The notes beneath the pieces were generated by a model. That model had not been told where the DNA came from, searched no databases, and saw only the letters and a program-made list of their open reading frames with translations. From the NCBI GenBank assembly GCA_024275575.1, contig JAJRYV010000045.1:23220-55219 (forward strand): DNA of 32,000 nucleotides, read 5' to 3'. A program made the position numbers and the translations under genes. The stretch comes from a bacterium. GTDB lineage: Bacteria; Zhuqueibacterota; Zhuqueibacteria; Zhuqueibacterales; Geothermadaptataceae. Every line of letters begins with the position of its first letter. Within the stretch, counting starts at the first letter, position 1. Below are positions 6,904-32,000 of the stretch, piece by piece.

Positions 6904-8289
6904 TCAAACATTATTCTCTTTGGGGTCGAGACCAAGCTCAGCCATTTTGCGATAAAGCGATGACAAACTCAAATCCAGCATTTTCGCTGCCGTTTTTTTC
7001 TCTGAATCAACGATTTCCAACACTTTGGTAATCTGCATTTTTTCAAATTCCGCGACGGCATCTTTTAAACCCATATTGGTGAAAACAGGCATTGCACCCT
7101 CGGCAGTTGTCGCCTGTGGCAGATGATCTGTGGTGATCATATCGCCATCGCATAAAATCACGGCGCGCTCGATCGTATTTTCCAGCTCGCGTACGTTGCC
7201 CTTCCAGGCATTGCCAAGAAAATAAGGCATCGCATCGATGCTGACGCCGGAAATACTTTTATTCATGTCATTATTGAATCGTTTGAGAAAGAAATTGATC
7301 AGCAGCGGGATGTCATCCCGGCGGTCACGCAGCGGCGGGATATAAATTCCCACGACGTTCAGACGGTAATACAAATCTTCCCGAAAGGCTCCCTTTTCGA
7401 TCTCTTCCTCCAGATTTTTATTGCTCGCAGCGATGATGCGCACATTGATGGGGATCGTCCGTCCGGCGCCAACCGGCATAATTTCCTGCTCCTGAATCGC
7501 CCGCAGCAACTTGACCTGTAAATTCAGCGGCAAGGTACTGATTTCATCGAGGAAAAGAGTGCCGCCGGAGGCCATACGGAACAAGCCATCCTTGTCTTTT
7601 ATCGCGCCGGTATACGACCCTTTGACATGGCCGAAAAGCTCGCTCTCGATCAAATTCTCCGAAATCGCGCCACAATTCACGGCAATGAATCGCTTCTGTT
7701 CCCGTGGGCTTTGCGAATGCAATAAACGCGCGACAATTTCTTTCCCCGTGCCGCTTTCGCCGGTGATGAGCACAGTGGAAGGCAACGGCGCGACTCGTGA
7801 AACCAGATTCAACACCGACTTAACTGCTTTGCTCTTGCCGATAAATTTGTATTTTTTCGAATGCGTGTCAGCGAGTTGTTCTTTCAAAAAACGATTTTCC
7901 TTGCTCAACGCATAACGCTCCAGTGCTTTGCTCACCGTGTGCAAAATTTCCGCCCGTTTGAACGGTTTTGAAATAAAATCATAAGCACCGTTTTTCATCG
8001 CTTCCACGGCTTTTTCCACTGTTCCGTGGCCGGTTAAAACGACCACTTCGATCTCCGGCCAGCTTTTTTTCACGGACTTGAGCAGCTCATTGCCGCTCAT
8101 CCCGGGCATCAGCATGTCGGTGAGCACGAGTGAAATATTTTCCCGTCCCAAAATAACTTCCGCTTCCGCGCCGTTGGCAGCGAGAAATGTCTTGTAACCT
8201 TCTTTATGAATAACACGCTCAAGTGAAACCCGAACGCTTTGTTCATCATCGACAATAAGAATTGAATATGATGATTCGTTAATCAACAC
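6904..8289 (-). CDS. Sigma-54-dependent Fis-family response regulator (NtrC/AtoC class)
   Basis: Receiver: ILIVDDEQ...LVLTDMLMPGMSG...KPF. AAA+ domain: Walker A GESGTGKE, sigma54-contact loop GSYTGA (GAFTGA variant), GAFREDLYYRLNV. C-terminal HTH: KTAAKMLDLSLSSLYRKM. Confidence 0.92.
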   Translation of the reverse strand: MLINESSYSILIVDDEQSVRVSLERVIHKEGYKTFLAANGAEAEVILGRENISLVLTDMLMPGMSGNELLKSVKKSWPEIEVVVLTGHGTVEKAVEAMKNGAYDFISKPFKRAEILHTVSKALERYALSKENRFLKEQLADTHSKKYKFIGKSKAVKSVLNLVSRVAPLPSTVLITGESGTGKEIVARLLHSQSPREQKRFIAVNCGAISENLIESELFGHVKGSYTGAIKDKDGLFRMASGGTLFLDEISTLPLNLQVKLLRAIQEQEIMPVGAGRTIPINVRIIAASNKNLEEEIEKGAFREDLYYRLNVVGIYIPPLRDRRDDIPLLINFFLKRFNNDMNKSISGVSIDAMPYFLGNAWKGNVRELENTIERAVILCDGDMITTDHLPQATTAEGAMPVFTNMGLKDAVAEFEKMQITKVLEIVDSEKKTAAKMLDLSLSSLYRKMAELGLDPKENNV

Positions 8290-9824
8290 GATGCAATCTC
8301 CTCTTTCTGATGCAGCATTTTATGCTGAATGGGAAGTATGAGAGTAAAAATCGTACCTTCCCTGACCTTGCTGGTAAAAGATATGCGGCCGCCATGCTCC
8401 TGCACGATCTGCATGGCAATGGCGAGCCCTAATCCGGTGCCCATATCTTTGGTTGTAAAAAAGGGTTCGAATATTTTATTCTGTTGATCGAAAGGAATGC
8501 CCTCGCCGTTGTCGGCAACGGAAATTTCGACATTCGCCCCTGCTGAAACCGCATGCAAACGCAGCACACCGCCATTTTTCATAGCGTCAAAAGCATTGCG
8601 CATCAAATTGAGAATCACCCGGCGGATTTGCTGCACATCGGCTGCGACTTTCGGCAATTCAGGTTCGATTTCACGAATGATTTCAATACCCTGGGAATTC
8701 GCCTCGGGCTCCACAAATTCGATCGTCGTCTGCAATAAATCTTCGAGACTGATCAGGTGAAAATCCGCTTCCGGCAGACGCGAGAACTGTAGATAATCTT
8801 CCGTCAGATCGGTGACCCGTTCAACCTCGTCCATGATCGCCTTGAGCAGGGTTTCACCCTCGCTGGAAATGCCCTCGGCAGCATATTTTAACTCATCTCC
8901 CAACAATTCGGCATTCAGGCTAATCGATGAAAGTGGATTGCGCACCTCGTGTGCAACTTTGGCCGCCATCTGTCCGATTATTGCCAGTCGTTCACTCTGA
9001 ATGATGCGCCTTTCCAATTCCTGTTGTTTGCGCATATCGAATTCAACCCCCATATAACCAACGGTTTTTTCACGTTCGGTTATGGAGGTGATCGAAAGCC
9101 AGACCGGAAATTCTTCACCATTTTTGTGACGATTGATAATCTGCCCGGCCCAACTACCGGTGATTTTGATCTGCTGCCAGATTTTTTCATAAAGGGCATC
9201 GGTGGTTTTTTGTGACCGAAGGATTGAGGTGCGCTGCCCGATCACTTCATCGTACGAATAGCCGTAAATACCGAGGAAGGCGCCGTTGACCTCGATGATG
9301 CGGGCATGCAGATCAGTGATGATAATGCCATCGGTACTGCCCTGAAAAGCGTTGTAAAACAGGTTGACGCGTGACGGCGGGCGGCGGCCATCTTCCTGCG
9401 GTTCCGCATCCCCGCCTGTCGTTGATTTGGCGCACATATCGAGAATGAACATACCCAAATCGTCGAAGAGTTGATCCAGTTGCCGGTTGATCTGCTGCAG
9501 CACTTGGGGTGATTCTGCAGCTTTGCCGAGGTCATCTTTAATTTCCCTTTTGATCGCGTTGATGATCAACTGCAGTTCACGATTGATGTTCAATAAGTAA
9601 TTGTGGGTGGAAAAAAATTGCTGCAGATTAGGCTGTAAGGTTTCGGATTCCGGATCATCTTGTGCAGCGTGCAGATAAGCCCAGACCTGCTGCAGGAATT
9701 CCGGCAATGAGGCAGCAGGAAAGTTAGCGCGAATTTGCTCCGAATTATTCAAGCGGTTGATCAATCGGCGAATGACGATTTTTTGCTGTGAATGAAGGTA
9801 TGTCGAAAAATTTGGATTCATCAA
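8283..9824 (-). CDS. Cytoplasmic PAS-domain sensor histidine kinase
   Basis: PAS-like segment: STDGIIITDLHARIIEVNGAFLGIYGYSYDEVIGQ. H-box: AHEVRNPL. N/G1/G2 boxes: LMRNAFDAM, DNGEGIP, GTGLGLA. No clear TM segment. It overlaps the regulator gene by 7 nt. The first codon is TTG and an ATG follows immediately at 9821. Confidence 0.9.
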   Translation of the reverse strand: MMNPNFSTYLHSQQKIVIRRLINRLNNSEQIRANFPAASLPEFLQQVWAYLHAAQDDPESETLQPNLQQFFSTHNYLLNINRELQLIINAIKREIKDDLGKAAESPQVLQQINRQLDQLFDDLGMFILDMCAKSTTGGDAEPQEDGRRPPSRVNLFYNAFQGSTDGIIITDLHARIIEVNGAFLGIYGYSYDEVIGQRTSILRSQKTTDALYEKIWQQIKITGSWAGQIINRHKNGEEFPVWLSITSITEREKTVGYMGVEFDMRKQQELERRIIQSERLAIIGQMAAKVAHEVRNPLSSISLNAELLGDELKYAAEGISSEGETLLKAIMDEVERVTDLTEDYLQFSRLPEADFHLISLEDLLQTTIEFVEPEANSQGIEIIREIEPELPKVAADVQQIRRVILNLMRNAFDAMKNGGVLRLHAVSAGANVEISVADNGEGIPFDQQNKIFEPFFTTKDMGTGLGLAIAMQIVQEHGGRISFTSKVREGTIFTLILPIQHKMLHQKEEIASC

Positions 9825-16436: not shown

Positions 16437-19328
16437 TCAGTTGACTGTCCCGCGCTTGACGATTTCTACCGCTACCCGGCGGTTTTGCTTGCGGCCTTCA
16501 TCTGTGGCGTTTGTCGCAACCGGAAATTTCGAGCTGTATCCGACAGCTTGCATCCGCTCTTCCGCCACACCTTTTTCAGCAAAATAGGCCAGCACAAAAC
16601 GGGCGCGTTTCAGCGATAAATCGCGATTATGGCCGTCGCTCCCCAGGCTGTCTGTATGGCCGGAAATCAAAATAATGCGGGCTGAATCGGCATAGAGTTT
16701 CGGCAGGTAACGGTCGAGGAAGCTGTCTAGTGCACTCTCGGTTTTGCGGGAAAAGCTCGACTGGTTCAGGTCGAATTTAACAATCAAATCCGTCGCCACA
16801 TCGATGACAAATTCAGCGCGGTTATCGGCTGCATTTTTGTCTTTTTCCAGCACAATTTCACTGCGGTTGATGATATCCAGAATAAAATTATCCCCCAGCG
16901 AAACACGCCGGTTGGCCTGTTTGCCGGCTTTTGTTGCATTGCTGGCAATCGGCCGCATTTCACCATAGCCGCGGGCGATAACACTGTTACTGTCTACCCA
17001 TTTGTTCAATTTCCCGGATGCGTCCCCGAGTTGCAGCAAATATTTCAGCACGCTGTTCGCCCGACGCTGCGAAAGCGCCTGATTGCGCGGTTCCGTATCG
17101 TCGGAATCGGTGTGCCCCTGAATTTCCACCGCCTTGTAAGGATTGTATGCAATGCGGGCAGCAAAGATTTTCAAAATGCGTTTATGCTCTTTTTGCAAAT
17201 TCATTTTGGAGTTCGGCCGTAAAAAATGTTTGGCAACATCGAATTCCGTATTGGCGAACGGATCCGTAAGATTAACCGTGTACTCAATTGTTTTTATTTC
17301 CCCTGCCGGCAGCTCAGCGATGCGCCAGTTGAGGATGTCCCCATTGACTTTTCCGGAGAAATTGTCAAAACTTTTCCATTTGACCAACGGCGAAAGCGTA
17401 TCAGCCACCTGGATATTTTTTGCCGGGGCAAAACCCTTGTTGGCAATCGTCAAGCGATATTTCAAATCGCCGCCGAATTTGCTGGGTTTCAATCCGCTAA
17501 GCTCGATTTTTTCGATTGAAACATTGGTAAAACAGCTTGAGTCTGCCCGCATTTCGTTATTGTCCTCATCGTTCTCCAGAATCAAATCGCTGGCATCCAC
17601 GCGGGCGATCAGGTGATAATCACCCCGGGTTGCATCGAGCAGAATTCGCCTTTGGAAGCGTTCCCCTACCCCGAGAAAAGCCAGGGTGTCCTGTAAGATC
17701 AGATTACCGCCAAGATTATTTTCAACAGGTGATTTGCTGGAGAGCACCTCCATTCCTCGCGACACCATCAAATCGACAATAGTTATAATCACCCGCTCGG
17801 CCGGCGCCTGGCCGTTATTGATGATCACCAATTCCGCCGCTGGTTCTTCACCGCACGCCACAGTGAGTTTTTCGATTTCGAGATCAGGCAAGCGAATGAT
17901 AAATTTGGAGATATGCCCGCCGTTCACATCGGCGATGCGATAGTGATGGTCTGAATCATAAGCGATAGTGGTCCAGAAATAGGTACCAGCACGCAACGCT
18001 TTAATTTTTGCATATCGATCTGAAACCGCCAGGCTGTGCAGCGGCCGGTTCCCACCGGTTGAGAGCAGTTTTTGATCGATAAATTGACGCTTTTTGCTAT
18101 ACTCTTTACCATACTCTACCCGGATATTTTTCAAAATCCGGATGAGTTTGGTGCTGTCATCATCGACGAGAAGCCAATATTTTACATTGTCAAAAATATC
18201 GCGATCGAGGGATTGCTGCCAATTCAATTCAACGGAATTATGGTAAATTTCCGCGGCAAATTGCGGATATTGCAGCCGGAAAGGTTCGGGGCCGACGAAC
18301 AGGTGGGATGCGGAAACATGCAACGTGTTGGCGAAATGGCCGATATTTTGTTTGTCCGAGCTTTCGAAACCACTCATCTCAAACTGGCCGGAAAAATTCC
18401 TGCCCAACAGTTTGTTTTTCAAAACACCGAATTTATCATCGAGACCGAGACTGATACCGAAGGAATAATTATTGAGCAAACCGCGATTTTTCAAGTTGAG
18501 CACGTATCCCACATAAACGGAAAAGACGCGCCCGAGATTGAGTTCGTAAGACAGACTGGCGTGATCATCTTCATCTTGAATGGCACGATAACCGAGGCCA
18601 AAACGCATCTGTGTGCCGCTGTGACTGCCGAGATAGAGACTCGAACCCAGGCGTACCGTCCGCGGTAGCGGTGTTTCCTCACGCACATATTTAATTGGCC
18701 GGCCGAGGTTCTGCACCGAAGCGCCAGCGGCAAATCGCCATGACTTGAGAAATGGAATTTTACTGTGCAGCGCAGCCCGCAGCAGTGATTTATAAATCAC
18801 GCCAAAATCGAAAGCCAGGGTGCTGGCCTGAAAACGATCGAGTTCACTGCGAAAATATTTGGCGTGCACACCGAGAGCGAAGCGATCGGCAAAACCCGGA
18901 AGCGTCAGACCATAACCGGCGCTTGCAATGAAATCACCCGCCTGCACCACGGGCATGCGATCTTTCGTGCTGTCGAATTCCGGCAGAAAAATATTGGAAA
19001 AACTGAGCACCAGTTTCTGCTGCCGCAGGTTGCCAATGCGAAATCGCTTGCCGGCAAAAATCGAAGTGGCGGTAAAATCGCTGAGCCAGTCGCTGTAAGC
19101 CGCTGACCAGCCGCTTTCCCGCCCCATGCCGATGAGGCCGGGGTTGCCCCAAAAACCGTAGAGATTATCGATATCGCTGACCAGCGCCGGACCGCTCACC
19201 TGCTGTTTGGCGCCCGGCAGAAATTTCAGAAAAGCGCCGCCGGTGCGAATCTGTGCCGGTAATTCCTGACAAACGAAAAAGTAGGCAACGACGAGAAATG
19301 AAATTATTAAAATTGATTTTTGTCCCAT
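16437..19328 (-). CDS. Large outer-membrane protein: PorV/FadL-like N-terminal barrel + CARDB/DUF11-like Ig modules + two C-terminal OmpA-type peptidoglycan-binding domains
   Basis: Signal peptide, then GGAFLKFLPGAKQQVSGPALVSDIDNLYGFWGNPGLIG (PorV-family opening pattern). CARDB-like ...LILENDEDNNE. DUF11-like LKYRLTIANKGFAPAKNIQVADTL. OmpA motifs occur twice: IQGHTDSDD...ALSQRRANSV...NRRVSL and ISGHTDSLGSDGHNRDLSLKRARFV...NRRVAVEIV. Confidence 0.8.
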   Translation of the reverse strand: MGQKSILIISFLVVAYFFVCQELPAQIRTGGAFLKFLPGAKQQVSGPALVSDIDNLYGFWGNPGLIGMGRESGWSAAYSDWLSDFTATSIFAGKRFRIGNLRQQKLVLSFSNIFLPEFDSTKDRMPVVQAGDFIASAGYGLTLPGFADRFALGVHAKYFRSELDRFQASTLAFDFGVIYKSLLRAALHSKIPFLKSWRFAAGASVQNLGRPIKYVREETPLPRTVRLGSSLYLGSHSGTQMRFGLGYRAIQDEDDHASLSYELNLGRVFSVYVGYVLNLKNRGLLNNYSFGISLGLDDKFGVLKNKLLGRNFSGQFEMSGFESSDKQNIGHFANTLHVSASHLFVGPEPFRLQYPQFAAEIYHNSVELNWQQSLDRDIFDNVKYWLLVDDDSTKLIRILKNIRVEYGKEYSKKRQFIDQKLLSTGGNRPLHSLAVSDRYAKIKALRAGTYFWTTIAYDSDHHYRIADVNGGHISKFIIRLPDLEIEKLTVACGEEPAAELVIINNGQAPAERVIITIVDLMVSRGMEVLSSKSPVENNLGGNLILQDTLAFLGVGERFQRRILLDATRGDYHLIARVDASDLILENDEDNNEMRADSSCFTNVSIEKIELSGLKPSKFGGDLKYRLTIANKGFAPAKNIQVADTLSPLVKWKSFDNFSGKVNGDILNWRIAELPAGEIKTIEYTVNLTDPFANTEFDVAKHFLRPNSKMNLQKEHKRILKIFAARIAYNPYKAVEIQGHTDSDDTEPRNQALSQRRANSVLKYLLQLGDASGKLNKWVDSNSVIARGYGEMRPIASNATKAGKQANRRVSLGDNFILDIINRSEIVLEKDKNAADNRAEFVIDVATDLIVKFDLNQSSFSRKTESALDSFLDRYLPKLYADSARIILISGHTDSLGSDGHNRDLSLKRARFVLAYFAEKGVAEERMQAVGYSSKFPVATNATDEGRKQNRRVAVEIVKRGTVN

Positions 19329-22180
19329 TATTGCACCAGTAAAAACTTAAGTTTACAATGTTGATCGGTCGTGTGTACGACCAGAATATAAGCGCCGCTG
19401 CCCATTTTTTTGCCGGAATTGACAAGACCGTTCCAATAGGTTTTGTGCAGCACTCCGGCGGAATAAACCCCCTCCTTCACCGTCGTGATATATGTTCCAA
19501 GAAGATCGTAAATTTTGATGGAAACCCGGTCGGTGCGGCAGGTTTCGAAATTGATTTCGAGATCGCTATCAACAGCCGGGGCGTAGACATTTTTATCGAG
19601 GAAACAATCAAGGCCGCAAAAAACCTGCAGCGAGTGTTCCGCCTTATTATTGCCCGGCTTTACATCGTCTGGATACTCGACGGTTGCCCGGTTTTGCAAT
19701 TCTGCCGGCAATTGCGGGATATCGGATAAAATAGTTGCCGTATATCGCAAAAATATTTTTTCACCGGGCTGTAATATGCGGTCGAAATACCAGCGGCCGC
19801 TATTTGTTGTTGAAAAATCCGGCCGCAGGCTGAAATCAGTGAGTTGCAGATAAATGGAAGCGCTGTCGGCGAGGGTGAAATTTTGAGCGCTGCCGGGCCC
19901 GTTGTTGGTGATTTCCAGTTCAAATTCGATTTCATCGCCGATTTTCCCACCCGCCTGCATCGCCCGCTTGAGAATGCTCAGGTCGGCCGGTAAATTTATT
20001 CTATCCGGCCGCAGGATTACCAACGCCGAATCCTGATTATTGCCCGAATTGCCGTCGCCCGGACTGACGATCTCAACAAAATTTTGCAGGGAAATAAAAT
20101 TTGCACCTGCAGCCGTGGCGCTCCCCTGAATAGTCAAATCGAGCTGTGCTGCGGGAGACAGAAAAAATCCCGGCCAGCGAATGGTATCGCTGTTTACTGT
20201 CAATCCCGGCTGCGAAGAAGTGATGTCCTCCGCGGTAAAACCCTGTGGCCATTTTTCCAGCAGATAAAAACTGAAAACCGTATCGGGCCCGAGATTGCTG
20301 ATTTCAATTTGATAATTGATAAACTGCCCGTAGTCAACAGTATCTTTTTGCGCCTGCTTGGTGACGCGCAAATCGCTGGAACGGGGAGTTGTACAGTCAC
20401 CGATTTTCACAGCGACTTGAGCAGAATTATTTGCCGCGAGGCTATCGTTTTTTGCGAATAAACTGGCGCGGGCCAGCATTTCCCCGGAAAAAACAGCAGG
20501 GACAAACGCGTCGATTTCAAACACTGCACTATCGCCGGCAGTGAGAAAATCCTGAGATGTCTGCCACAGAACAAAGCCCTGAGCCGAATCGATTTGCTGC
20601 CAGTAATCCGGCAGATTGAACAACAATGTTGCGGGCAAACCGGCTTGCAAAATAATGCTGCCGCTTGCGGTCGGCCCCGGATTTCGCACCGTATAGCGAA
20701 AACGGATGCTATCAGCAAGACAAACCGAATCCGCCGATGCCTGCAGATCGAGCGCCAGATCGGTGGTCTGATAAACATGCAGGGTCGAATCACGATTGTT
20801 GGCCGGATTGCTATCATATGGCGCGGCAACGCTGACTTTATTTTCGAGGAAAAGAGTTTGATCGGCGACGAGGCCTTCCAGTAGTTGCGCCTGATAACTA
20901 AAGATCAGCGAATCACCAGCTGATATTTTGCGATCGACCAGCCAGAAAAAACCTGAATCGTCGGTGCTGTCCGGTTCAGTTGTAAAATTGAAGGCGTACA
21001 GAAATTTATCCAGCGTATCCCGCACTGTAAATGCCGAGGCCTCATCGGGCCCAAGATTGCGCAGCACGAGGCGATAATCCAAAATCCCCGCTGCTGCGGG
21101 GAAACGCCAGACGCCGCTTTTTTCAATTGCCAAATCATAAACCGGCGCACTGCAGCGCGGATCAACGAGAATGGATTGCCGCACGAACTGGCTATCGAGT
21201 TGCGTATCACTGTTAGTAAAAATCTGGCAAATTAATTCCACAGTCGTGATACTGTCAAGTTGATCAAAAGTGATTTCAAGGGCAAGGTTTTGTTGAAAAT
21301 TCAATAAATCCGTCAGGCCCTGTGCCCCGGGTATCCAGCGGAAACTCAGCAGTGAGTCGAGACGAGAACTCTGCCATTCCGCGCTGGTATTTTTAATGGT
21401 CATACCGGGTGGTTCGACCATTTTTAAAACCAGACTGTCGATTTCCGATAGATCGAACAATTGCATGTCCGCTTCATCAACATCAAAAACGACATCGAGC
21501 TGACCGCGTTGAATGGCACAGTCCATGGTGAATTGCGGGTTGCATTGCAGGCGCAAATCATTTGTACAGAATGGTGAAAGCAAACGAACAAAAAAGATTT
21601 CAACACTTTCAGGTTCACTCCTGCCGCCGATTGAATTGCCGCTATTGGCGCCGGCGGAACCGGTGTCTGATAAATCGTAATAATTGACAAAATCAGGATG
21701 GGCTTCGGCGATTATTTTATAATGATTGATAATGATGGTATTGCACCCTTTTTCAAAATAAAACAAACCGGCGTCGCGGTTAACCAGCCCGTCGAACGCG
21801 GCGGTAGAATCATCAACCACGATTTTATAAGCCGCGTCAGCCGTGGTGATGTTGGGGTCTTGCGGGAAACGCAGTTGGCTGTTGCGAACATGCACATAAA
21901 AACTTTCATTTTTCTGTTTATTACCGCTATTGTAGTGGGCGAGTGTTTGGATATGAAAAAAACCTTCTTCGGGAAAATCATCGATATCGAAAGAAACACT
22001 GCGCGTCCAGTTGACCCAATGGGTGGTGTCGGCGAAAACACGCAATTCGTTATGCATGAAATCAAAAGAATAAGTTGAGCAACTATCCTGTGCTATCACC
22101 GGCATGGTGAACAGGAAAAAAAAGACGGGAAATAGCAGACGCCACAAAACCTGTTTGAAGTTTTGTTTGATTTTTTTCAT
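19328..22180 (-). CDS. DUF11-repeat cell-surface protein with a C-terminal FlgD-Ig / T9SS-type sorting domain
   Basis: Signal peptide LLFPVFFFLFTMPVIAQ. At least 4 repeats of the type DLxxxKxxx...xYxxxxxNxGPxxAxxxxxxD (for example DLSILKRAMQAGGKIGDEIEFELEITNNGPGSAQNFTLAD). C-terminus: VSIKIYDLLGTYITTV...YWNGLVNSGKKMGSGAYILVVHT...KFLLVQ. The stop overlaps the start of the downstream gene by 1 nt. Confidence 0.75.
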   Translation of the reverse strand: MKKIKQNFKQVLWRLLFPVFFFLFTMPVIAQDSCSTYSFDFMHNELRVFADTTHWVNWTRSVSFDIDDFPEEGFFHIQTLAHYNSGNKQKNESFYVHVRNSQLRFPQDPNITTADAAYKIVVDDSTAAFDGLVNRDAGLFYFEKGCNTIIINHYKIIAEAHPDFVNYYDLSDTGSAGANSGNSIGGRSEPESVEIFFVRLLSPFCTNDLRLQCNPQFTMDCAIQRGQLDVVFDVDEADMQLFDLSEIDSLVLKMVEPPGMTIKNTSAEWQSSRLDSLLSFRWIPGAQGLTDLLNFQQNLALEITFDQLDSITTVELICQIFTNSDTQLDSQFVRQSILVDPRCSAPVYDLAIEKSGVWRFPAAAGILDYRLVLRNLGPDEASAFTVRDTLDKFLYAFNFTTEPDSTDDSGFFWLVDRKISAGDSLIFSYQAQLLEGLVADQTLFLENKVSVAAPYDSNPANNRDSTLHVYQTTDLALDLQASADSVCLADSIRFRYTVRNPGPTASGSIILQAGLPATLLFNLPDYWQQIDSAQGFVLWQTSQDFLTAGDSAVFEIDAFVPAVFSGEMLARASLFAKNDSLAANNSAQVAVKIGDCTTPRSSDLRVTKQAQKDTVDYGQFINYQIEISNLGPDTVFSFYLLEKWPQGFTAEDITSSQPGLTVNSDTIRWPGFFLSPAAQLDLTIQGSATAAGANFISLQNFVEIVSPGDGNSGNNQDSALVILRPDRINLPADLSILKRAMQAGGKIGDEIEFELEITNNGPGSAQNFTLADSASIYLQLTDFSLRPDFSTTNSGRWYFDRILQPGEKIFLRYTATILSDIPQLPAELQNRATVEYPDDVKPGNNKAEHSLQVFCGLDCFLDKNVYAPAVDSDLEINFETCRTDRVSIKIYDLLGTYITTVKEGVYSAGVLHKTYWNGLVNSGKKMGSGAYILVVHTTDQHCKLKFLLVQ

Positions 22181-25531: not shown

Positions 25532-26212
25532 ATGTTGAATATGTCGAATTATTACACGAAAAATCTCGCAGCCGGGCGTCTGAAAAAATGTTATGATCTG
25601 GCGCCCGGACGGGTGCGCCAATATCTCGAGGCAGAAATCGAGACCGTCCGGGCACGCATCAAGCACGGTGATCACGTGCTCGAACTGGGCTGTGGTTACG
25701 GCAGAGTGCTCGCAGCGCTACAAGGTGAGACCGATAACTTGTTCGGCATCGATTTATCGGTTGAAAATCTGCATTTTGCCCGCCATGAATTTTTATCGGG
25801 TCACACAGTCTGTTTATTTGCCATGGACGCTTACAATCTCGCTTTCCGAACACCATTGTTCGATCTCGTTTTTTGCATTCAAAACGGCATTTCCGCTTTT
25901 GGCGGCGAGGCCGGAAAACTGATTCGTGAAGCCATACGCGTCACCAGACCGGGCGGTACGGTGTTTTTTTCCAGTTATGCCAGCAAATTCTGGTCACAGC
26001 GCTTGCATTGGTTCAAAGTTCAGGCAGTGCATGGATTGATCGGCGAGATCGATTATGAGTGCTCGGGCAATGGAATCATCGTTTGTAAAGATGGATTTCG
26101 GGCAACGACTTTTTCGCCGGCAAATTTCGCAAATTTATTAAACGGATTAAACTGCACAGGCCATGTTTTTGAAATCGATAATTCAGCCGTATTTTGTGAA
26201 ATTCGGGTTTAA
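25532..26212 (+). CDS. Class I SAM-dependent methyltransferase
   Basis: Motif I VLELGCGYGRV, post-I LFGIDLS, motif II/III ...FDLVFCIQNGISAF...RPGGTVFFSSY. Confidence 0.85.
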   Translation: MLNMSNYYTKNLAAGRLKKCYDLAPGRVRQYLEAEIETVRARIKHGDHVLELGCGYGRVLAALQGETDNLFGIDLSVENLHFARHEFLSGHTVCLFAMDAYNLAFRTPLFDLVFCIQNGISAFGGEAGKLIREAIRVTRPGGTVFFSSYASKFWSQRLHWFKVQAVHGLIGEIDYECSGNGIIVCKDGFRATTFSPANFANLLNGLNCTGHVFEIDNSAVFCEIRV

Positions 26213-26733
26213 TACTGATCATTTTACCACAGCAATAAAGCTTTCCGCACCGCCGCAAAATCGCCTACCTGCAATTTTACCTCATAAAAACCGGTTATAC
26301 ACGAAACCATTTCCGCCGGACACCCGGGGCAGAGTGAAAAAATGAAGTGAAAAAATTCTCGCTGCTGTTTTTCGAAAATTTCCGACTCAACAGAAGGCGA
26401 GTTTTTTGTTTTTAGTCGCAACGACGCCGGATAAAAACACTGAACTCCTTTGTCTGGTTGGTTGTTGTTACGGATAGTGCACTCGAGGTTTTGTTGAATG
26501 TCCCCAGAAAATTATGACTGGAAACAATAAATCGTAACTCGTTCAGCCATATCCGCTTGGCGGGATTTTCTTCCTGCTTGTCAAACGGTAGAATCCCGCC
26601 GTCGGATTGCATCGGGGATTCCTTGATCGGGCAGCATGTGAGCTTAAATCCCTGATGAGCATATTGGGGCTGAATAGCTACTGAAAAGTGCGTCGCACGC
26701 AGCTCCGGGTTTGTTGCAAAAAGGCTAAACTTT

Positions 26734-26759
26734 TAAGAGCTGGAGGATTTCTCCGATAA
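26734..26759 (+). promoter_or_regulatory. Candidate sigma-28 (FliA)-type promoter upstream of the motor cluster
   Basis: TAAG (26734-37) - 14 nt - TCCGATAA (26752-59), against the consensus TAAA-N15-GCCGATAA. It lies 33 nt upstream of the ATG at 26792, with AAGGAAAA as a Shine-Dalgarno sequence in between. One match only; not validated. Confidence 0.3.
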
Positions 26760-26791
26760 AGGGTAAGACTCTTCAACAAAGGAAAATCAGG

Positions 26792-28582
26792 ATGAAAATG
26801 ACATTTGACGAATTTCTGAAAAAGGTAATCATTGCCGGAATTCTTTTGGGATTGCCGATTTGCAGCCTCGGCGCCCAGTCCCGGATGAACGATAATTCTC
26901 TCGAAAATATCGAGAACACGATGGAAGCCAACCTGTCGTGGAATCTTGAAACGGCTTTACTCAATTATTTTCCAGAGACCAAGTTCGTTGTTAAAGCCAA
27001 TGTGCAACTTGAAAAAGTCCGGCAGGTAACTGCCCTGCCGCCATTGCCGGATGTTTTGTTAAAAAGAGAAGTCACTTCCTTGCCTGGTTTGCCTTTTATT
27101 CCGGGTCAGGAACGGCAAAAGGCGAAGCAAAACGACAAGTTCCGTTCTGTAGCTGAAAAATCGAATGTAAAAGTAAAACGGCTCACCGTCAATGTGCTCG
27201 TCGATAATAGTTTCACTGAAGGCGACTGGGCTTTCATCCGGCGCCTGGTTTCCCTTTCCGCCGATATGGACCCGCGTCGCGGCGACCGGGTTTCGGTGGA
27301 AGCTTTTGACTTTCCTGTGAAGTCCAATTATTTTAACTCGCCGCCCCCAAAAATCAGCGCCGACAGCAACGCCCAAAATGCTTTTGCCCAATCCCTTTTT
27401 CCGGATGAACAAAAAGCGGGTTTTGACTGGCGGCCGTTTATTTTTGCTGCTGTGCTGGCCGGTATTTTTCTCATCATTCTTTTCTGGGGCATGAATTCGA
27501 TTTTGAAAAAATTGAACCAGGAGCCGGCCATTGAAAAAGAAGCGCCGCTGCCGGCCCGGCAGGAAAAACAGTCAGCGGAAGCGGACCAGGAAAAGGATGC
27601 GCAATTCGCCATGAAATCTTCGGTGGTCGATGCCATTGTCGGCACGCCGGCGGCGGCAGCCGACGTCATTAAAGACTGGGTGAAAAATGATGCCGGCAGC
27701 GGTGTTCGTGATGCGGCGGTTCTCTTCCGCGCCACCTCAAAAAATCTCAATAAATTTCTCGCCGAATCCCTCGGCGCACAAATTTCTGCAGACGTGCAGG
27801 AGCAGATCGATTTGTTGCCGCAGGATGAGATCGACCGGGCCGGAGCTGAAGTGGTCAAAAAGTTTGATGAAAATCTGCGTAACACGGCGCTTTCGGCGAT
27901 CCGCAATGAGGAGGAAAGTGACGCGCTGGCCTTTTTACATCAATTGACAGACGACCAATTATTGCACCTGATCAAACCCCTGAAAGATGGTGTTTTGGCC
28001 ATCGTATTGGCACAATTGCAGCCCGAACGCGCTTTCCGCATCATTAAATCGCTGGACCCGCGCAAGCAGCCTGCAGCGCTCGCAGCCATGGGTAATGTGG
28101 AAAAAGTGCCGGCCGATGTCTACCAGCATATTGCCAAACAACTGCTGACGCGGGCAAAAGACGTTGAGAAAATGCGCTTCGTGCGCGCCGACGGCATCGA
28201 TGCGCTGGTTAATATCCTCGATTTTATGGATGATTTTGATCAGGAGCAAATTCTCGAATATATCGATACGCAAGATTTGAATTTATCCCAGCGCATCCGG
28301 GCGAAGTATATGACATTCAACCAATTGGTGGAATTGCCGGCTGAAAAAATGCGCGAACTGGCCTTTACCGTTGATCGCGACCTGTTAGCCAAATCCCTCA
28401 TTCATGTCGACGATGTGACGGTGAACCGCATCATCGAAGCACTGCCCGACAAGCTGGCGGAAATGGTACAGGCCAGCCTCGAAGCCGGCAGCGAAGTCAG
28501 TGAAGAAGAAGTCACACGTGCGCGCCGGCAGTTGATGCGTACCGTGCGTCAATCCGGAATTGCCAAAGAAACGGTAAAATAA
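26792..28582 (+). CDS. Two-TM inner-membrane protein: FliF/YscJ-like periplasmic ring-building motif fused to FliG-like middle + C-terminal (torque) domains
   Basis: TM1 is aa 11-28. Periplasmic part: LETALLNYFPETKFVVKANVQLE ... VKRLTVNVLVDNSF...IRRLVSLSADMDPRRGDRVSVEAFDF (FliF/YscJ RBM pattern). TM2 is aa 214-234. Cytoplasmic part: GVLAIVLAQLQPERAFRIIKSLDPRKQPAALAAMGNVEKV (FliG_M-like), ADGIDALVNILDFMD...ILEYI...SQRIRAKYMTFNQLVELPAEKMRELAFTVDRDLLAKSL...ALPDKLAEMVQASLEAGSEVSEEEVTRARRQLMRTV. This last stretch is co-linear by eye with E. coli FliG ...MFLFENLVDVDDRSIQRLLQEVDSESLLIALK...NMSQRAADILRDDLANRGPVRLSQVENEQKAILLIV. Confidence 0.7.
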   Translation: MKMTFDEFLKKVIIAGILLGLPICSLGAQSRMNDNSLENIENTMEANLSWNLETALLNYFPETKFVVKANVQLEKVRQVTALPPLPDVLLKREVTSLPGLPFIPGQERQKAKQNDKFRSVAEKSNVKVKRLTVNVLVDNSFTEGDWAFIRRLVSLSADMDPRRGDRVSVEAFDFPVKSNYFNSPPPKISADSNAQNAFAQSLFPDEQKAGFDWRPFIFAAVLAGIFLIILFWGMNSILKKLNQEPAIEKEAPLPARQEKQSAEADQEKDAQFAMKSSVVDAIVGTPAAAADVIKDWVKNDAGSGVRDAAVLFRATSKNLNKFLAESLGAQISADVQEQIDLLPQDEIDRAGAEVVKKFDENLRNTALSAIRNEEESDALAFLHQLTDDQLLHLIKPLKDGVLAIVLAQLQPERAFRIIKSLDPRKQPAALAAMGNVEKVPADVYQHIAKQLLTRAKDVEKMRFVRADGIDALVNILDFMDDFDQEQILEYIDTQDLNLSQRIRAKYMTFNQLVELPAEKMRELAFTVDRDLLAKSLIHVDDVTVNRIIEALPDKLAEMVQASLEAGSEVSEEEVTRARRQLMRTVRQSGIAKETVK

Positions 28583-28593
28583 GAGAGCCTGTC

Positions 28594-29760
28594 ATGACGC
28601 AAAAAACTAAAAAATATATTCACCATATTCTCATTTTGGCTGTTTTTGCCATTTCGCCGCTTGCCGCGCAAATGGAGAATCAGGCAGGACGAAAACCGGA
28701 GAATAAACCGGTTGAGAAAAGCATGCTTTTCAACCTGCTCGAGGATATTTTTGTGCAGGTTGCGCAAGCGGCACCGGAGGTGGGAACCGATCTTGAGCGC
28801 ATCGCCGTCTATCATTTGAAAGTGGATGAGCGCTATATTCCACCGGCATTACGCACACATATCGAAGCGAGAATTGCCGAAATTTTCCGTGATATCGAAA
28901 TGCCGAAACTGGTCTCGCTGCCGGAGCTGAACACGATGAAAATCGTTTCCACCGACAGCAGTTTTCGCATCGTCAATACACTGCCTTCACCGCACGAATT
29001 GTGGAAAATCGGCAAACGCCTGCGCATCGACGCTTTTATGGATGGCGCCATAACCTATTTGCCCGGCAAAGCGCTGTTGCTCGATTTGAAACTGAATAAA
29101 GTGGGTAGCAGCGAAGTCGTCTGGTCGCGTTCATTTGCCTCCTATATCGACGATCCCGACCTGCCGTCGACGAATCCATTCATGAAATCTCTCGTTGCCG
29201 GATTGGAAGTCTATCCCATCGAATGGGATGTGGCCGATTCCGATACTCTGATTCACAGGAACGCCAGCAATCAACTGAAACAGCAAACGGTGTATTTCGG
29301 TGTGCATCAATATTTGTGGGAAAAAAGCCGTTTGCGTTATGAATTTAGCATCGGGCTGGCATTCCTCACCGACGGCCTGAAGCTGAACAATACTGCTTTT
29401 ACAAAATCCGCGTTTTACGGCAGTTCTTCGACCACGGGTGGTTTCTCCATCCCGGTTTCCTACAATGTCCGTACGATGATTTATTCAACACTGGTAGAAA
29501 ACAGTAAAAGCAATCGCTCCGATTGGCTCTCGGCGTATTTTTCATTGACGCGGCATTTCGCCATGAAAATGCCGGATTTCACCAGTATTACGGTCGGTCT
29601 GCGCACGGATTTTACACAACGTTTTTCCTTTTCTGCAGGTTTGAGCATGGTGCTCGGCAAAGAATTCGAATCACAGATGGTGAAATCCAGCGGTGAGAAA
29701 ATCAATTTAAAAATCAGCGGTATGCAATATGAGTTGATGCTGTTGCAGCTTTCATTTTAA
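28594..29760 (+). CDS. Exported protein, probably outer-membrane associated: CsgG/FlgO/LpoB-like N-terminal pattern + C-terminal beta-rich region ending in Phe
   Basis: Signal peptide ILILAVFAISPLAAQ. Then RIAVYHLKVDERYI...IGKRLRIDAFMDGAITYLPGKALLLDLKLNKVGSSEVVWSRSF (periplasmic scaffold pattern). The C-terminal half alternates hydrophobic residues and ends YELMLLQLSF. Function unknown. Confidence 0.5.
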   Translation: MTQKTKKYIHHILILAVFAISPLAAQMENQAGRKPENKPVEKSMLFNLLEDIFVQVAQAAPEVGTDLERIAVYHLKVDERYIPPALRTHIEARIAEIFRDIEMPKLVSLPELNTMKIVSTDSSFRIVNTLPSPHELWKIGKRLRIDAFMDGAITYLPGKALLLDLKLNKVGSSEVVWSRSFASYIDDPDLPSTNPFMKSLVAGLEVYPIEWDVADSDTLIHRNASNQLKQQTVYFGVHQYLWEKSRLRYEFSIGLAFLTDGLKLNNTAFTKSAFYGSSSTTGGFSIPVSYNVRTMIYSTLVENSKSNRSDWLSAYFSLTRHFAMKMPDFTSITVGLRTDFTQRFSFSAGLSMVLGKEFESQMVKSSGEKINLKISGMQYELMLLQLSF

Positions 29761-29790
29761 ATAATGGTTTAAAAAATAGAGGTCTTTGTC

Positions 29791-30507
29791 ATGTTTTTAA
29801 AACAGAAATATACAGTCATTGCTCTTGTTTTTTCTGCCATCCTTTTTTTGCATTGTGGCGGCAGCAATAACACTGCAGTGAAAGATTTGCCCGCTAAGGC
29901 CGGCACAGAAAAAGCATTAACACCTGAGAAAATCGCTGCGCTCGACCAAAAAGCTGATTCGACAAAAACCGCTGAAGAGAAGAAACGGCAGAAGACGATT
30001 GTCACCGAGCTCGATGGCGCCAAACTGAAGAAAACCCAGAGCTATCCTTACATCAGCATCAAGTTCTATCAGAAGGATACGGATGTGGAAATGGTGCTCG
30101 ATCCACTTTCAACAAACATCGATCTCGACCTCAAGCGGCGACCAGATGGCACCCTTGAAGTGCGAAAAGGTGATGAGGTTTTAACTCAGATGGGGCCGAA
30201 AGACAGCACGAAAACATCATCACGCAGGACGGCACCATTTGATCCCAGTGAGGATTTAACCGACGATATCATTCGGGATATCAATCTGGCGCAGCAACTT
30301 TTTTATCAAAATGAATATGATGACGCGCTGAAGATTCTCAATTCCAGCCTGGAGAAGAAACAAACGGCTTCAGCTTATGCCCTCGGCGGTTCCATCTATT
30401 TCGTCAATGGCGAGATGAACGAAGCGGTGCGGGCATGGGAGAACGCCCTGAAAATCAATCCTGATCTCGATGAATTAAAGGGGCTTGTCGCGCGTTACAA
30501 GAAATAA
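29791..30507 (+). CDS. Exported (possibly lipid-anchored) TPR-repeat protein
   Basis: The hydrophobic leader ends at ...ILFLHC(22)GGS; the lipobox is non-canonical. The C-terminal AQQLFYQNEYDDALKILNSSLE...AYALGGSIYFVNGEMNEAVRAWENALKINPD reads as TPR repeats. Confidence 0.6.
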   Translation: MFLKQKYTVIALVFSAILFLHCGGSNNTAVKDLPAKAGTEKALTPEKIAALDQKADSTKTAEEKKRQKTIVTELDGAKLKKTQSYPYISIKFYQKDTDVEMVLDPLSTNIDLDLKRRPDGTLEVRKGDEVLTQMGPKDSTKTSSRRTAPFDPSEDLTDDIIRDINLAQQLFYQNEYDDALKILNSSLEKKQTASAYALGGSIYFVNGEMNEAVRAWENALKINPDLDELKGLVARYKK

Positions 30508-30534
30508 ACTGAATATCAAATAGAAAGGTAAGCC

Positions 30535-31356
30535 GTGTTTACATTATTAGGCGTCCTGCTCGGCGTCGCTCTGATCGCCTGGGGAATTATTTCAGGCCAG
30601 GCCACACCGGATGTGTTTCTCAACTGGCAAGGTGTGGCCATCGTTTTCGGCGGCACCATTGCTTCAACGTTCATTTCACACCCTTTCCGTGAGGTCTTTC
30701 GCGGATTTATGTCCTATTTTGTTATCTTTCGTTCCGGCCGGGTTGATTATGTTAAAGTCATCGACAAAATGGTGACGGCCATCCGCATCGGTCAACGCGA
30801 CGGCATTCCCGCCATGCAAAAGCAGATTAAGGCGCTGAAAGGTCTGTGGATTTTTAAAGATGGCGTTCAGATGCTGGCCAATGGTTATACCCGCGAAGAA
30901 GCAAAAGCAACGCTGGAAGATCAGGTTCGCTGGAAGGTAACCCGGGAGCTGAAGCAGCGCGATCTTTTCAACTCGATGTCGCAAGCGGCACCGGCCTTCG
31001 GCATGATCGGAACGCTCATCGGTCTGATCAATATGCTGCTGACACTGCAATCAAACCCTTCCGATGTTGGCTCCGGTTTGGCCATTGCTTTGATCACGAC
31101 ATTTTATGGATTGATCATGGCAAACATGGTTTTTGCACCCATCGGCGCTAAAATTGAAGATCGCGCCGAGACCAACCTGCTTTTCGAGACCATTCAGATG
31201 GAAGCTGTATTGCTGCTTTATGACAAGAAAAACTATATCTTCGCGCGTGACAAGCTCGCAGCCTATCTCAACGCCGGATCACGCAAAAAACTTATCAAAG
31301 TCGCCGGAAAAGGCTCTTTGCAGAAGAAACAGGGATTCATTAAAAAGGCGGCATAA
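30535..31356 (+). CDS. motA: MotA/PomA-family proton(ion)-channel stator subunit
   Basis: Four-TM topology with a roughly 100-aa cytoplasmic loop between TM2 and TM3. AAPAFGMIGTLIGLINML...GLAIALITTFYGLIMANMVFAPIGAKIE is the MotA_ExbB channel signature. GTG start after GAAAGG. Confidence 0.85.
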   Translation: MFTLLGVLLGVALIAWGIISGQATPDVFLNWQGVAIVFGGTIASTFISHPFREVFRGFMSYFVIFRSGRVDYVKVIDKMVTAIRIGQRDGIPAMQKQIKALKGLWIFKDGVQMLANGYTREEAKATLEDQVRWKVTRELKQRDLFNSMSQAAPAFGMIGTLIGLINMLLTLQSNPSDVGSGLAIALITTFYGLIMANMVFAPIGAKIEDRAETNLLFETIQMEAVLLLYDKKNYIFARDKLAAYLNAGSRKKLIKVAGKGSLQKKQGFIKKAA

Positions 31357-31358
31357 AA

Positions 31359-32000
31359 ATGCAACTCGATCTTCCACATCAGAATATGATAAAATCAAAC
31401 AAAGGGGAGAGCCAAACCTGGATGATGTCCTACAGTGATTTGGTGACGCTGCTGCTGGCGTTTTTTGTCCTGTTTTTCGCCATATCGCAGGTTGATCAAG
31501 CCAAATTTGAAGCTATCATGGAATACTTCAGTGAGAGTGATAAACTACCGTTGAGCGAACTGGAAAAAGTCGTCGAGCAATTGGTGGCTGAACACAATCT
31601 GCAGGAAAGTGTTGAAGTTGAACTCACAGGAGAGGGACTGCTGTTGACCTTTCAGGACAAGATTCTTTTTGATTCGGGTAAAGCCAATCTGAAGGAAGGC
31701 GCCTACCCAATTTTGGGGGGCATTGGCGATATTTTAAAAAGCGAAAAAGTGGCGGATCGCCATATCAAAGTAGAGGGACACACCGATACGGTTCCGCTGA
31801 GTAAAAAATCGGATTATCCGTCAAACTGGGAACTGTCTGCCGCACGGGCAACACATGTCATCCGCTATCTCATCGCCAAAGAAGTTGATCCGCATCGCTT
31901 TGTTGCCATTGGTTATGCCGATACGCGGCTGCGCATCGAAGAATCCGGGGCAAAGCGGGGGTTGCAGGCAAATCGCAGGGTGAGTTTGATTATCAGATAA
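31359..32000 (+). CDS. motB: MotB/PomB-family stator subunit with an OmpA-like peptidoglycan-binding domain
   Basis: WMMSYSDLVTLLLAFFVLFFAIS (TM with the conserved channel Asp), then FDSGKANL...VEGHTDTVP...SNWELSAARATHV...GYADTR...NRRVSLII. There is a 2-nt gap after motA. The stop codon is the last triplet of the window. Confidence 0.85.
   Translation: MQLDLPHQNMIKSNKGESQTWMMSYSDLVTLLLAFFVLFFAISQVDQAKFEAIMEYFSESDKLPLSELEKVVEQLVAEHNLQESVEVELTGEGLLLTFQDKILFDSGKANLKEGAYPILGGIGDILKSEKVADRHIKVEGHTDTVPLSKKSDYPSNWELSAARATHVIRYLIAKEVDPHRFVAIGYADTRLRIEESGAKRGLQANRRVSLIIR

Follow-up and report, generated by a model that had tools for sequence, protein, structure and literature searches.

Five open reading frames (ORFs) lie on the plus strand between positions 26792 and 32000 of a 32,000-nucleotide stretch of bacterial DNA (contig JAJRYV010000045.1 of assembly GCA_024275575.1), the whole of which we call the window. 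They encode proteins of 596, 388, 238, 273 and 213 amino acids, numbered here as genes 1 to 5, and we analyze them as a candidate envelope machine built from parts of the flagellar motor. The intergenic gaps are 11, 30, 27 and 2 nt, and the final base of the window is the last base of the stop codon of gene 5, a motB. An initial annotation, made from the letters alone, had noted five co-directional genes with these gaps and a window ending exactly on the motB stop codon, and the ORF coordinates agree on both points. Its starting point for the set, position 26734, has to be corrected, since no start codon is possible before 26792, 58 nt further downstream. The sequence AGGAAAA lies 7 nt ahead of the ATG of gene 1, and NCBI takes the second methionine as the start (P0001, 594 amino acids). 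The features of the operon are collected in Table 1.

Table 1. Features of the five-gene operon in the window. Residue numbers refer to the protein of the gene concerned. RBM, ring-building motif; TM, transmembrane; AF2, AlphaFold2; UTR, untranslated region.
Feature	Residues	Position	Strand	Basis
Upstream spacer, presumed promoter and 5' UTR		26213..26791 (579 nt)	+	sequence reading
Gene 1, FliF(RBM3)–TM–FliG fusion, presumed rotor subunit		26792..28582	+	Pfam, PDB sequence matches, AF2, Foldseek
Gene 1, N-terminal hydrophobic segment, signal peptide or TM1, ending ...LGA-Q	1–29	26792..26878	+	AF2 helix 3–28
Gene 1, periplasmic RBM3-like ring-building domain, RGD at 163–165	37–175	26900..27316	+	AF2, Pfam, Foldseek
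Gene 1, conserved proline-rich insert (LPPLPDVLLKREVTSLPGLPFIPGQ...)	76–114	27017..27133	+	AF2 disorder, alignment conservation
Gene 1, TM helix joining the periplasmic ring domain to the FliG-like part	214–241	27431..27514	+	AF2 helix
Gene 1, cytoplasmic FliG-like region with N-, M- and C-like domains	261–595	27572..28576	+	Foldseek, TIGR00207
Gene 1, torque-helix equivalent (PDKLAEMVQASLEA)	552–565	28445..28486	+	alignment to A. aeolicus and T. maritima FliG
Gene 2, orphan exported protein, probable outer-membrane β-barrel		28594..29760	+	leader, AF2 strands, C-terminal Phe
Gene 2, leader		28594..28671	+
Gene 3, TPR lipoprotein (predicted)		29791..30507	+	Pfam TPR, Cys22
Gene 4, PomA/MotP-like 4-TM MotA stator subunit		30535..31356	+	Pfam, NCBIfam, PDB
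Gene 5, MotB stator subunit		31359..32000	+	MotB_plug, OmpA, NCBIfam MotS
Gene 5, TM aspartate	27	31437..31439	+

The fusion protein of gene 1

Gene 1 has clear matches to two different flagellar proteins. In Pfam it matches FliG_C (E = 9.2e-16) and FliG_M (9.2e-7), both exceeding the cut-offs, together with MgtE_N (2.5e-6), and residues 115–174 match YscJ_FliF_C (9.8e-8, with 33 bits against a cut-off of 23.8). The FliG sequences 3hjl (1.5e-12) and 1lkv (6.6e-9) are found in the PDB at approximately 20% identity. The TIGR00207 fliG model is matched at 7.5e-18, with a score of 65 bits that does not reach the equivalog cut-off of 226.7.

An AF2 model of gene 1 was built from 20 homologues, with a predicted local distance difference test (pLDDT) score of 70.6, and compared with the PDB using Foldseek. 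The alignment of the model with full-length A. aeolicus FliG (3hjl, E = 3.6e-7) extends over 316 columns, and the C domain of the model superposes on the fragment of FliG bound to MotAB (8ucs_H) with a TMt of 0.80 and a root-mean-square deviation of 1.6 Å. The periplasmic part is matched to the RBM3/S-ring region of FliF (8z5v, 6sd3 and 8z4d) with a probability of 1.00, E values of ~1e-2 and TMt of 0.55–0.58. Gene 1 is a natural fusion, comprising FliF reduced to its RBM3, one TM helix and the N, M and C domains of FliG. The initial annotation had read it as one FliF/YscJ ring-building motif joined to a FliG-like part, which is borne out by Pfam and Foldseek; the FliG_M, FliG_C and YscJ_FliF matches that it proposed to look for are all present, and the fold comparison agrees with them. 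It had assigned the cytoplasmic part to the middle and C domains of FliG. These are both there, and the alignment with full-length FliG adds the N domain.

Canonical FliF is a protein of ~550 amino acids that has RBM1, RBM2 and RBM3 with a β-collar between two TM helices, and canonical FliG is a soluble protein of ~330 amino acids. Gene 1 does not follow the plan of three RBMs and two TM helices, but it has an RBM3-type fold with the RGD...F motif. Equally it is not a soluble protein of ~330 amino acids, being membrane anchored and 596 amino acids long, yet it has the armadillo-like N/M/C architecture of FliG with the C-terminal torque helix. Its periplasmic part comprises ~180 residues, with Pfam covering only the last 64 positions of YscJ_FliF_C. 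By Pfam, AF2 and Foldseek it has neither RBM1 nor RBM2, the domains that accommodate the export gate in FliF, and the matches are confined to the RBM3/S-ring region.

The periplasmic domain has the topology α1β1-[insert]-β2α2β3 in the AF2 model, formed by α1 (residues 37–59), β1 (66–75), a disordered loop (76–114), β2 (126–137), α2 (143–156) and β3 (166–171). Residues 261–595 are all helical. Conservation was assessed in an alignment of 53 sequences of the gene 1 family from several phyla. Within the RGD motif G164 and D165 are invariant, and R163 and also P175 are at least 90% conserved. The insert has pLDDT <50, yet P98, G99, L100, P101 and P104 within it are at least 90% conserved, so that the periplasmic part has two family-wide motifs, LPGLPxxP and RGD. 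In the FliG part W296, G304, F358, F381, P552, A577 and R586 are conserved across the family. Judging from the published topology of FliF RBM3, this proline-rich insert of ~40 residues would occupy the position of the β-collar of FliF, and it may serve in partner binding or in the formation of a collar.

Near residue 200 a hydrophobic segment is shared by 134 of the 136 family representatives that are full length, and a second such segment lies at the N-terminus. In each of the 19 family members whose N-terminus is present this leader terminates in [A/G/S]-Q. The leader of gene 2 likewise ends in [A/G/S]-Q in nearly all relatives. Such endings agree with the signal peptidase I 'Q-rule' that is known from the Bacteroidetes. 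The N-terminal segment of gene 1 looks like a cleavable signal peptide, and because the leader ends in [A/G/S]-Q the mature rotor protein may be single pass. The two hydrophobic segments in the initial description of a 2-TM protein are therefore real, but the first may be removed to leave one TM helix.

Stator genes, envelope partners and conservation of the five-gene set

Genes 4 and 5 are a flagellar-type MotA/MotB stator. Gene 4 matches Pfam MotA_ExbB (1.3e-22), and over its full length the best NCBIfam models are MotP (7.5e-41) and PomA (2e-38), compared with 3e-3 for TolQ. In the PDB it aligns with C. sporogenes MotA (6ysf, 2.9e-35) and with PomA (5e-26). It conforms to the 4-TM plan of MotA, with a large cytoplasmic domain between TM2 and TM3 and conserved prolines in TM3 and TM4, and the APAFGMxGT motif and the TM4 proline are kept in all loci. 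Its scores fall below the NCBIfam equivalog cut-offs, indicating that it is not the orthologue of any named stator. Gene 5 matches MotB_plug (3.3e-18) and OmpA (5e-17) in Pfam, and MotS (6.4e-49) in NCBIfam. The channel aspartate, the plug (SQVDQxKFE) and the peptidoglycan motifs (NWELSxAR...NRRV) are conserved in 19 of 19 loci. Both genes had been correctly recognized from the sequence, gene 4 as a 4-TM channel of MotA/PomA type and gene 5 as a MotB with the channel aspartate and an OmpA-like anchor; the plug can be added. In a locus from the Elusimicrobiota (L028, 14758–15783) MotB is 341 amino acids in length rather than the usual ~213, with a C-terminal extension that has a faint TPR match, as if a TPR or scaffold function were partly fused to MotB.

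Gene 3 has Pfam matches to TPR_1 (1.7e-8) and TPR_2 (1.4e-7). A leader is followed by Cys22, an orphan middle domain and two C-terminal TPR repeats. TPR repeats occur in all 15 members of the family, and the cysteine after the hydrophobic leader in 17 of 19 loci, while a profile search of the PDB returned generic TPR proteins only. By these sequence features gene 3 is a TPR lipoprotein, in agreement with its first description as an exported TPR protein.

Gene 2 has no match in Pfam, NCBIfam, PADLOC or the PDB sequences, including a profile search. Only eight relatives were found among 5.8 billion proteins, each sharing its source contig with a homologue of the fusion protein. The protein ends in ...LLQLSF, conserved in the family as L-Q-x-[ST]-F. 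An AF2 model made from eight sequences (pLDDT 39.7) has an N-terminal α/β domain and ~12 long strands in residues 147–387. Two of 15 family members match FlgO (PF17680) weakly, with a best E value of 0.0043. It is plausible that gene 2 forms an outer-membrane β-barrel with a FlgO-like periplasmic domain. The export and the ...LLQLSF ending given in the initial annotation stand, and the outer-membrane location that it implied is suggested by just three features, namely the signal peptide, the β-strands of a low-confidence model and the aromatic, β-signal-like C-terminal end.

In the closest relative of the window (L001, 8249–9175) there is a CsgG-family gene ~800 nt upstream of the operon, which is not conserved in the other loci; comparison of gene 2 with this neighbor using hhalign was not significant (probability 2.5%). 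Gene 2 is interrupted in one Calditrichaceae metagenome-assembled genome (MAG; L023, 1405–2548), where two ORFs of 127 and 244 amino acids take the place of its homologue. No other disrupted copy was seen, and this one may reflect a frameshift or an assembly error, or else be a pseudogene.

The five genes recur together. Homologues of gene 1 with 40–76% identity are found in MAGs of the Calditrichaeota and KSB1, and a profile search of 1.84 billion representative proteins gave 166 clusters (at 50% identity) with E ≤ 1e-30. Among the top 150 of these, 136 have a length of at least 530 amino acids, and of those 134 have a TM helix in the middle of the protein, 113 a PGLP-like motif and 113 the RGD. 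By these sequence criteria the gene 1 architecture is present in at least 134 lineages with <50% identity. The taxonomy of the distant members is that of the few cluster members that carry a name, from KSB1, Fibrobacterales and Elusimicrobiota MAGs. A word-indexed search with the broad family alignment returned the close subfamily only.

Using phmmer with the window proteins we found all five genes, including gene 2, in the same order and on the same strand, with short gaps, in each of 20 non-redundant loci that were sufficiently long. The 20 loci are drawn from the Calditrichaeota and KSB1, from an Elusimicrobiota MAG and from untyped metagenome contigs. Among them are members from Fibrobacterales-like and Elusimicrobiota MAGs that are only ~18–25% identical to the window. 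In the four most distant loci the phmmer E values are 1e-34 to 2e-71 for gene 1, 2e-9 to 8e-26 for gene 2, 3e-9 to 2e-24 for gene 3, 2e-24 to 3e-57 for gene 4 and 2e-29 to 9e-51 for gene 5. As judged from these matches, at least four bacterial phyla possess the operon, with MAGs of the Calditrichota, KSB1, Fibrobacterales and Elusimicrobiota represented, and since all five genes recur in order across phyla a chance association is excluded. Genes 2 and 3 are orphan families seen only in the five-gene operon, and this is not an ordinary MotAB paralogue placed beside unrelated genes. At the level of sequence the pattern of conservation is the signature of a functional, co-inherited module, in which long-term purifying selection on the five-gene set is evident. 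The conserved gene order that the initial annotation had asked about is thus seen in 20 non-redundant loci.

The flanks of the operon differ at each locus and are mostly housekeeping genes, such as tatAC–tyrS, clpXP, tilS–ftsH–folE and folP–cdaA–glmM. The gene following motB in the relatives lies on the opposite strand or is unrelated, and is never flagellar, from which we conclude that the operon ends at motB; for the window itself this downstream end is taken from the relatives, by proxy. Neither the 26 kb upstream in the window nor the ±10 kb around eight annotated loci (L001, L003, L004, L006, L025, L026, L027 and L028) contain fliH/I/J, fliM/N, flhA/B, fliPQR, rod, hook or flagellin genes, or any other flagellar neighbor. 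A continuation into a flagellar gene set, which by the initial annotation would have told against its reading, is not seen in the relatives. A PilZ-domain gene is found upstream of the operon in one locus (L026, 5409–5813) and is not conserved in the others.

A proposed rotor–stator machine and its alternatives

We think it probable that genes 1 to 5 constitute a single operon for a rotor–stator machine, self-contained and ion driven, which is made of flagellar-motor parts and is independent of a flagellum. Such a machine would be derived from, or sister to, the flagellar motor core. The initial annotation had suggested a self-contained trans-envelope machine driven by the proton-motive force, and this is supported by the profile matches, the recurrence of the five genes and the lack of flagellar neighbors.

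To our knowledge, ring building is the only role of an RBM3 domain, and FliG_C is the only partner of the cytoplasmic domain of flagellar MotA. Fusion of RBM3, a TM helix and FliG points to a rotor with an S-ring-like face in the periplasm and a FliG ring in the cytoplasm. In the proposed mechanism the N-terminus of gene 1 would be exported first, and the RBM3-like domain would oligomerize at the periplasmic side of the inner membrane to give a ring resembling the S-ring, with one TM helix per subunit linking this to a cytoplasmic ring of FliG-like domains. Stators of MotA5B2 type formed from genes 4 and 5 would dock around the ring, open their plug and become anchored to the peptidoglycan by the OmpA-like domain. 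Flow of H+ or Na+ through the Asp27 channel would then turn MotA against the FliG_C-like domain, leading to rotation of the ring.

Genes 2 and 3 would form an outer-membrane-anchored part in the periplasm, for which we see two options. They could be a scaffold for placing the stators. Complex flagellar motors offer a precedent, in that outer-membrane FlgO/FlgP and TPR proteins (PflA, PflB and FlcA) serve there as stator scaffolds and are needed for recruitment of MotAB (PMC7990780). Alternatively, they could be the load, receiving the movement of the rotor through the conserved LPGLP loop. In the latter case this loop, invariant and yet disordered in the model, would be an obvious candidate ligand for the TPR domain of gene 3.

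The operon encodes no export gate, rod, filament or EHPQR motif. At the position of the FliM-binding EHPQR motif the window has KPLKDG and the wider family K[DGE]E[SPD]xG, so that only the glutamate is commonly retained. Without EHPQR, and with no FliM/N encoded in the operon, a switch is unlikely. The motor would therefore probably be unidirectional and drive something other than a flagellar filament, natural candidates being processes such as surface motility or an outer-membrane process.

The residues of the torque interface are conserved in part. K554 of gene 1 corresponds in position to R281 of E. coli FliG, a site with a basic residue in 51 of the 53 aligned sequences. The equivalents of D288 and D289 are A561 and S562 in the subfamily of the window, with the second position occupied by glutamate in 25 of 53 sequences across the wider family. 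The MotA equivalents of R90 and E98 lie in the pattern Q-R...Q-K in the window and are variable in the subfamily; they are acidic only in the distant loci L026 and L027. The distant member L026 keeps the R...DD-E torque pattern together with an acidic MotA residue at the position equivalent to E98. We read the altered charges as a possible lineage-specific re-wiring of an ancestral canonical interface, although they could also reflect a contact that is weakened or different.

Several observations weigh against a rotary, flagellum-independent machine. Both of the canonical charge pairs between MotA and FliG are altered in the Calditrichota/KSB1 subfamily (FliG A-S; MotA Q(R)/Q(K)), and the MotA–FliG interface may be different or weak as a result. 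While the domain identities, the retention of catalytic and anchoring motifs and the recurrence of the operon across phyla are shown, ring formation and rotation are inferred from homology, and so too are the topology, the output and the roles of genes 2 and 3 matters of inference. No output component can be identified in the operon. The placement of gene 2 in the outer membrane comes from a model of low confidence (pLDDT 39.7), its similarity to FlgO is marginal and its comparison with the CsgG-family protein is not significant. Finally, full flagella are encoded by Caldithrix abyssi, which is in culture, and by KSB1 clades II and IV (PMC5317091, PMC9012183), and the host of the window may be flagellated.

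The last point bears on the possibility that the operon belongs to a canonical flagellum, the remaining genes of which lie elsewhere in the genome. The five genes might then provide a paralogous or specialized rotor–stator, or the only FliF/FliG of the lineage, with genes 2 and 3 as periplasmic accessories of the H-ring or PflAB type. Every recognizable domain is indeed flagellar, FlgO/FlgP and TPR proteins are known flagellar accessories, genes for a full flagellum can occur in the Calditrichota and in KSB1 clades II and IV, and JGI labels the relatives of gene 1 'flagellar motor switch protein FliG'. Yet the ~180-residue periplasmic part lacks RBM1 and RBM2, the FliM-binding EHPQR motif is absent and the operon never adjoins flagellar genes in the window or the eight annotated loci. 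Moreover it occurs in MAGs of the Elusimicrobiota, most free-living members of which are reported to lack flagellar structural genes, while flagellated C. abyssi was not recovered in the genome scan, where a divergent copy could escape. We consider this explanation unlikely.

We hold a non-rotary mechanism to be improbable to a similar extent. Here MotAB would energize single copies of the fusion protein that do not form a ring, the FliG-like domain coupling to the cytoplasmic face of MotA. The proline-rich segment would reach gene 2 in order to gate or remodel it, with gene 3 as an adaptor, making a transducer like TonB or TolA and thus an analogue of Tol-Pal/Ton from flagellar parts. The gene set has a superficial parallel to tolQ-tolR-tolA-tolB-pal-cpoB, each having a 5:2 motor, a membrane-anchored protein spanning the periplasm, an outer-membrane-associated protein and a TPR protein, and the loss of the canonical torque charges in the window subfamily would be in keeping with it. 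The most conserved periplasmic element of gene 1, the proline-rich loop predicted to be disordered, recalls the spacers of TonB and TolA, but it is only ~40 residues in length and the domain that carries it is of the RBM3 ring-building type. The stator too is flagellar, with four TM helices and a large cytoplasmic domain in place of the 3-TM plan of ExbB/TolQ-type A subunits, as reflected in the E values for TolQ and MotP, and FliG_C is the dedicated partner of the MotA cytoplasmic domain in a rotary interface. Membership of the Tol/Ton systems themselves was rejected on the grounds of those E values (TolQ 3e-3, MotP 7.5e-41), and the operon lacks TonB_C and TolA domains.

It is very improbable that the operon is the decaying relic of a lost flagellum with no present function. 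Partial flagellar gene sets are common in non-motile bacteria, 11% of which have a rotor protein but no filament (PMC12199754). The ORFs here, however, are intact across the 20 loci, apart from the split gene 2 in L023, invariant motifs persist at 18–25% identity across phyla, and two orphan genes co-evolve with those of flagellar type. Least of all can we entertain an anti-phage defense of the Zorya kind, with a motor of MotAB type signaling to effectors: gene 5 matches ZorB models (7e-21), both being MotB homologues, but gene 4 matches ZorA at 9e-4 compared with ~1e-40 for MotP/PomA, there are no ZorC/D/E-like nuclease, helicase or other effector genes and no PADLOC match for genes 1–3, and the flanks are housekeeping genes rather than defense islands. 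We also rejected a plasmid-borne or mobile element, there being no homologues on plasmids, and the TPR/OmpA/ExbBD cellulose-binding complex of Fibrobacter succinogenes, which is made of different proteins and has no FliG.

Returning to the rotor–stator machine that we favor, it shares with the flagellar motor core an RBM3/S-ring-type domain, FliG N/M/C-like domains with a C domain that superposes on MotAB-bound FliG_C, a 4-TM MotA, a MotB with its aspartate, plug and OmpA-like anchor, and presumably the mechanism whereby the stator turns the FliG ring. It differs in that FliF and FliG are a single polypeptide lacking RBM1, RBM2 and the long β-collar. In addition, the lack of EHPQR in the operon implies that there is no FliM/N switch, and the interface charges are changed in the window subfamily. 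Export apparatus, rod, hook, L/P ring and filament genes are all missing from the vicinity of the operon, which instead has two orphan envelope proteins as obligatory partners.

The nearest published object is the FliF–FliG fusion of the Chlamydiaceae (Bergeron 2016, PMC4768692), which has ~330 amino acids, an RBM2-like and one further RBM domain and, of FliG, a FliG_M-like domain alone; motAB is not part of its operon, and it was proposed to work with the injectisome. In both proteins a shortened FliF with a signal sequence, RBM-type domains and a TM helix is joined to a FliG-like domain, and the chlamydial hosts are non-flagellated. However, gene 1 has ~600 amino acids, is RBM3-like, contains the N, M and C domains of FliG and is always encoded with MotAB.

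The periplasmic stator scaffolds of Vibrio (the H/T-rings FlgO/P/T and MotX/Y), Campylobacter and Helicobacter (FlgP, PflA and PflB) and Borrelia (FlcA) similarly comprise outer-membrane-anchored and TPR proteins, which are encoded alongside MotAB or needed to recruit it; gene 3 is a predicted TPR lipoprotein, and two gene 2 relatives have weak FlgO matches. There is no significant sequence homology, however, and genes 2 and 3 accompany a minimal rotor without a rod. GldLM of the type 9 secretion system, AglRQS–Glt, ExbBD–TonB, TolQRA–Pal and ZorAB all have an inner-membrane 5:2 ion motor that serves an envelope process, with the genes in a compact operon. In these systems the action passes through TonB, TolA or GldM, or through a periplasmic extension of the B-like subunit, and not through a cytoplasmic FliG ring. 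Their A subunits lack the torque-generating cytoplasmic domain of the flagellar protein, whereas the operon keeps the pairing of stator with FliG. The parallels with GldLM, Agl/Glt and ZorAB drawn at the outset therefore hold as functional analogy, without homology beyond the MotAB-type stator.

Most free-living Elusimicrobiota have been reported to lack flagellar structural genes and yet to have motAB and fliG homologues, of 'unclear' role (bioRxiv 10.1101/2022.07.08.499144). A bolder proposal, which we advance tentatively and with less confidence than the existence of the machine itself, is that in non-flagellated lineages such as these the operon encodes a minimal 'flagellum without a flagellum'. 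This would be a fourth kind of envelope machine based on a 5:2 motor, with a FliF–FliG ring spun by MotAB and coupled only to an outer-membrane barrel and a TPR lipoprotein, powering surface motility or an outer-membrane process. Since nothing of the motor but the rotor–stator pair is present, it could be a surviving relative of a pre-flagellar motor rather than a reduction of the flagellum.

We found no published description of the five-gene system in the full-text literature, which does not cover subscription journals. A survey of the evolution of MotAB (PMC12505986) does not describe the operon, nor does the survey of flagellar loss cited above (PMC12199754), which raises the prospect of another function for orphan rotor proteins. 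The operon is made of known families in a new configuration, which is widespread and, it appears, undescribed, and the chance that we are dealing with a new class of ion-driven envelope machine is substantial.

We know of no rotor–stator pair of FliG with MotAB outside the 40-gene flagellum. The five-gene operon offers a specific candidate for a functional minimal motor that lends itself to experiment, and with one rotor protein and no switch it is simpler than the flagellum for structural and biophysical studies of torque. If the proposal is correct, it would account for the puzzling presence of fliG and motAB in non-flagellated Elusimicrobiota. It may also reveal a new mode of motility or of outer-membrane energization in poorly known sediment phyla.

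The upstream region of the window

The nearest gene upstream of the operon is an S-adenosylmethionine (SAM)-methyltransferase (25532–26212), and the initial annotation was right to place it across a spacer of ~580 bp. At 579 nt this spacer is long relative to the compact region surrounding it. It contains no ORF of at least 80 amino acids and no match to Rfam or to a tRNA. A search of the spacer for promoters gave no sigma-54 consensus, with sigma-70-like sites at background level only, and no promoter was identified.

The preceding 26 kb contain 18 larger ORFs, including a HAD hydrolase, an FHA–SLT protein, a CoA-ligase/GNAT pair, a sigma-54 two-component system, two DUF11/OmpA giants, GlnRS, a DUF3592 protein and several orphans. 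None is flagellar by its domain content, as the initial annotation had stated. The two-component system lies at 6223–9824 on the minus strand, with a PAS histidine kinase, an NtrC-type sigma-54 activator and a stand-alone receiver domain encoded consecutively; a sigma-54 promoter consensus is found nowhere in the window, the region upstream of the motor operon included. The giants are adjacent at 16437–22180 on the minus strand and have 963 and 950 amino acids, in which DUF11 repeats occur together with CARDB/Ig-like domains. Two OmpA-like peptidoglycan-binding domains form the end of one, and a weak FlgD_ig-like C-terminal domain that of the other; both are probably cell-surface or envelope proteins that lie outside the motor operon. 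Between 10256 and 16192 on the plus strand, ORFs of 403, 283, 183, 132, 212 and 418 amino acids have no Pfam match at E ≤ 1e-4; some of these overlap, making the gene calls uncertain there. The FHA–SLT protein (1409–2881, minus strand, 490 amino acids) has an N-terminal FHA / YscD-cytoplasmic-like domain and a C-terminal SLT lytic transglycosylase, an unusual pairing in which phosphopeptide binding is joined to peptidoglycan cleavage.

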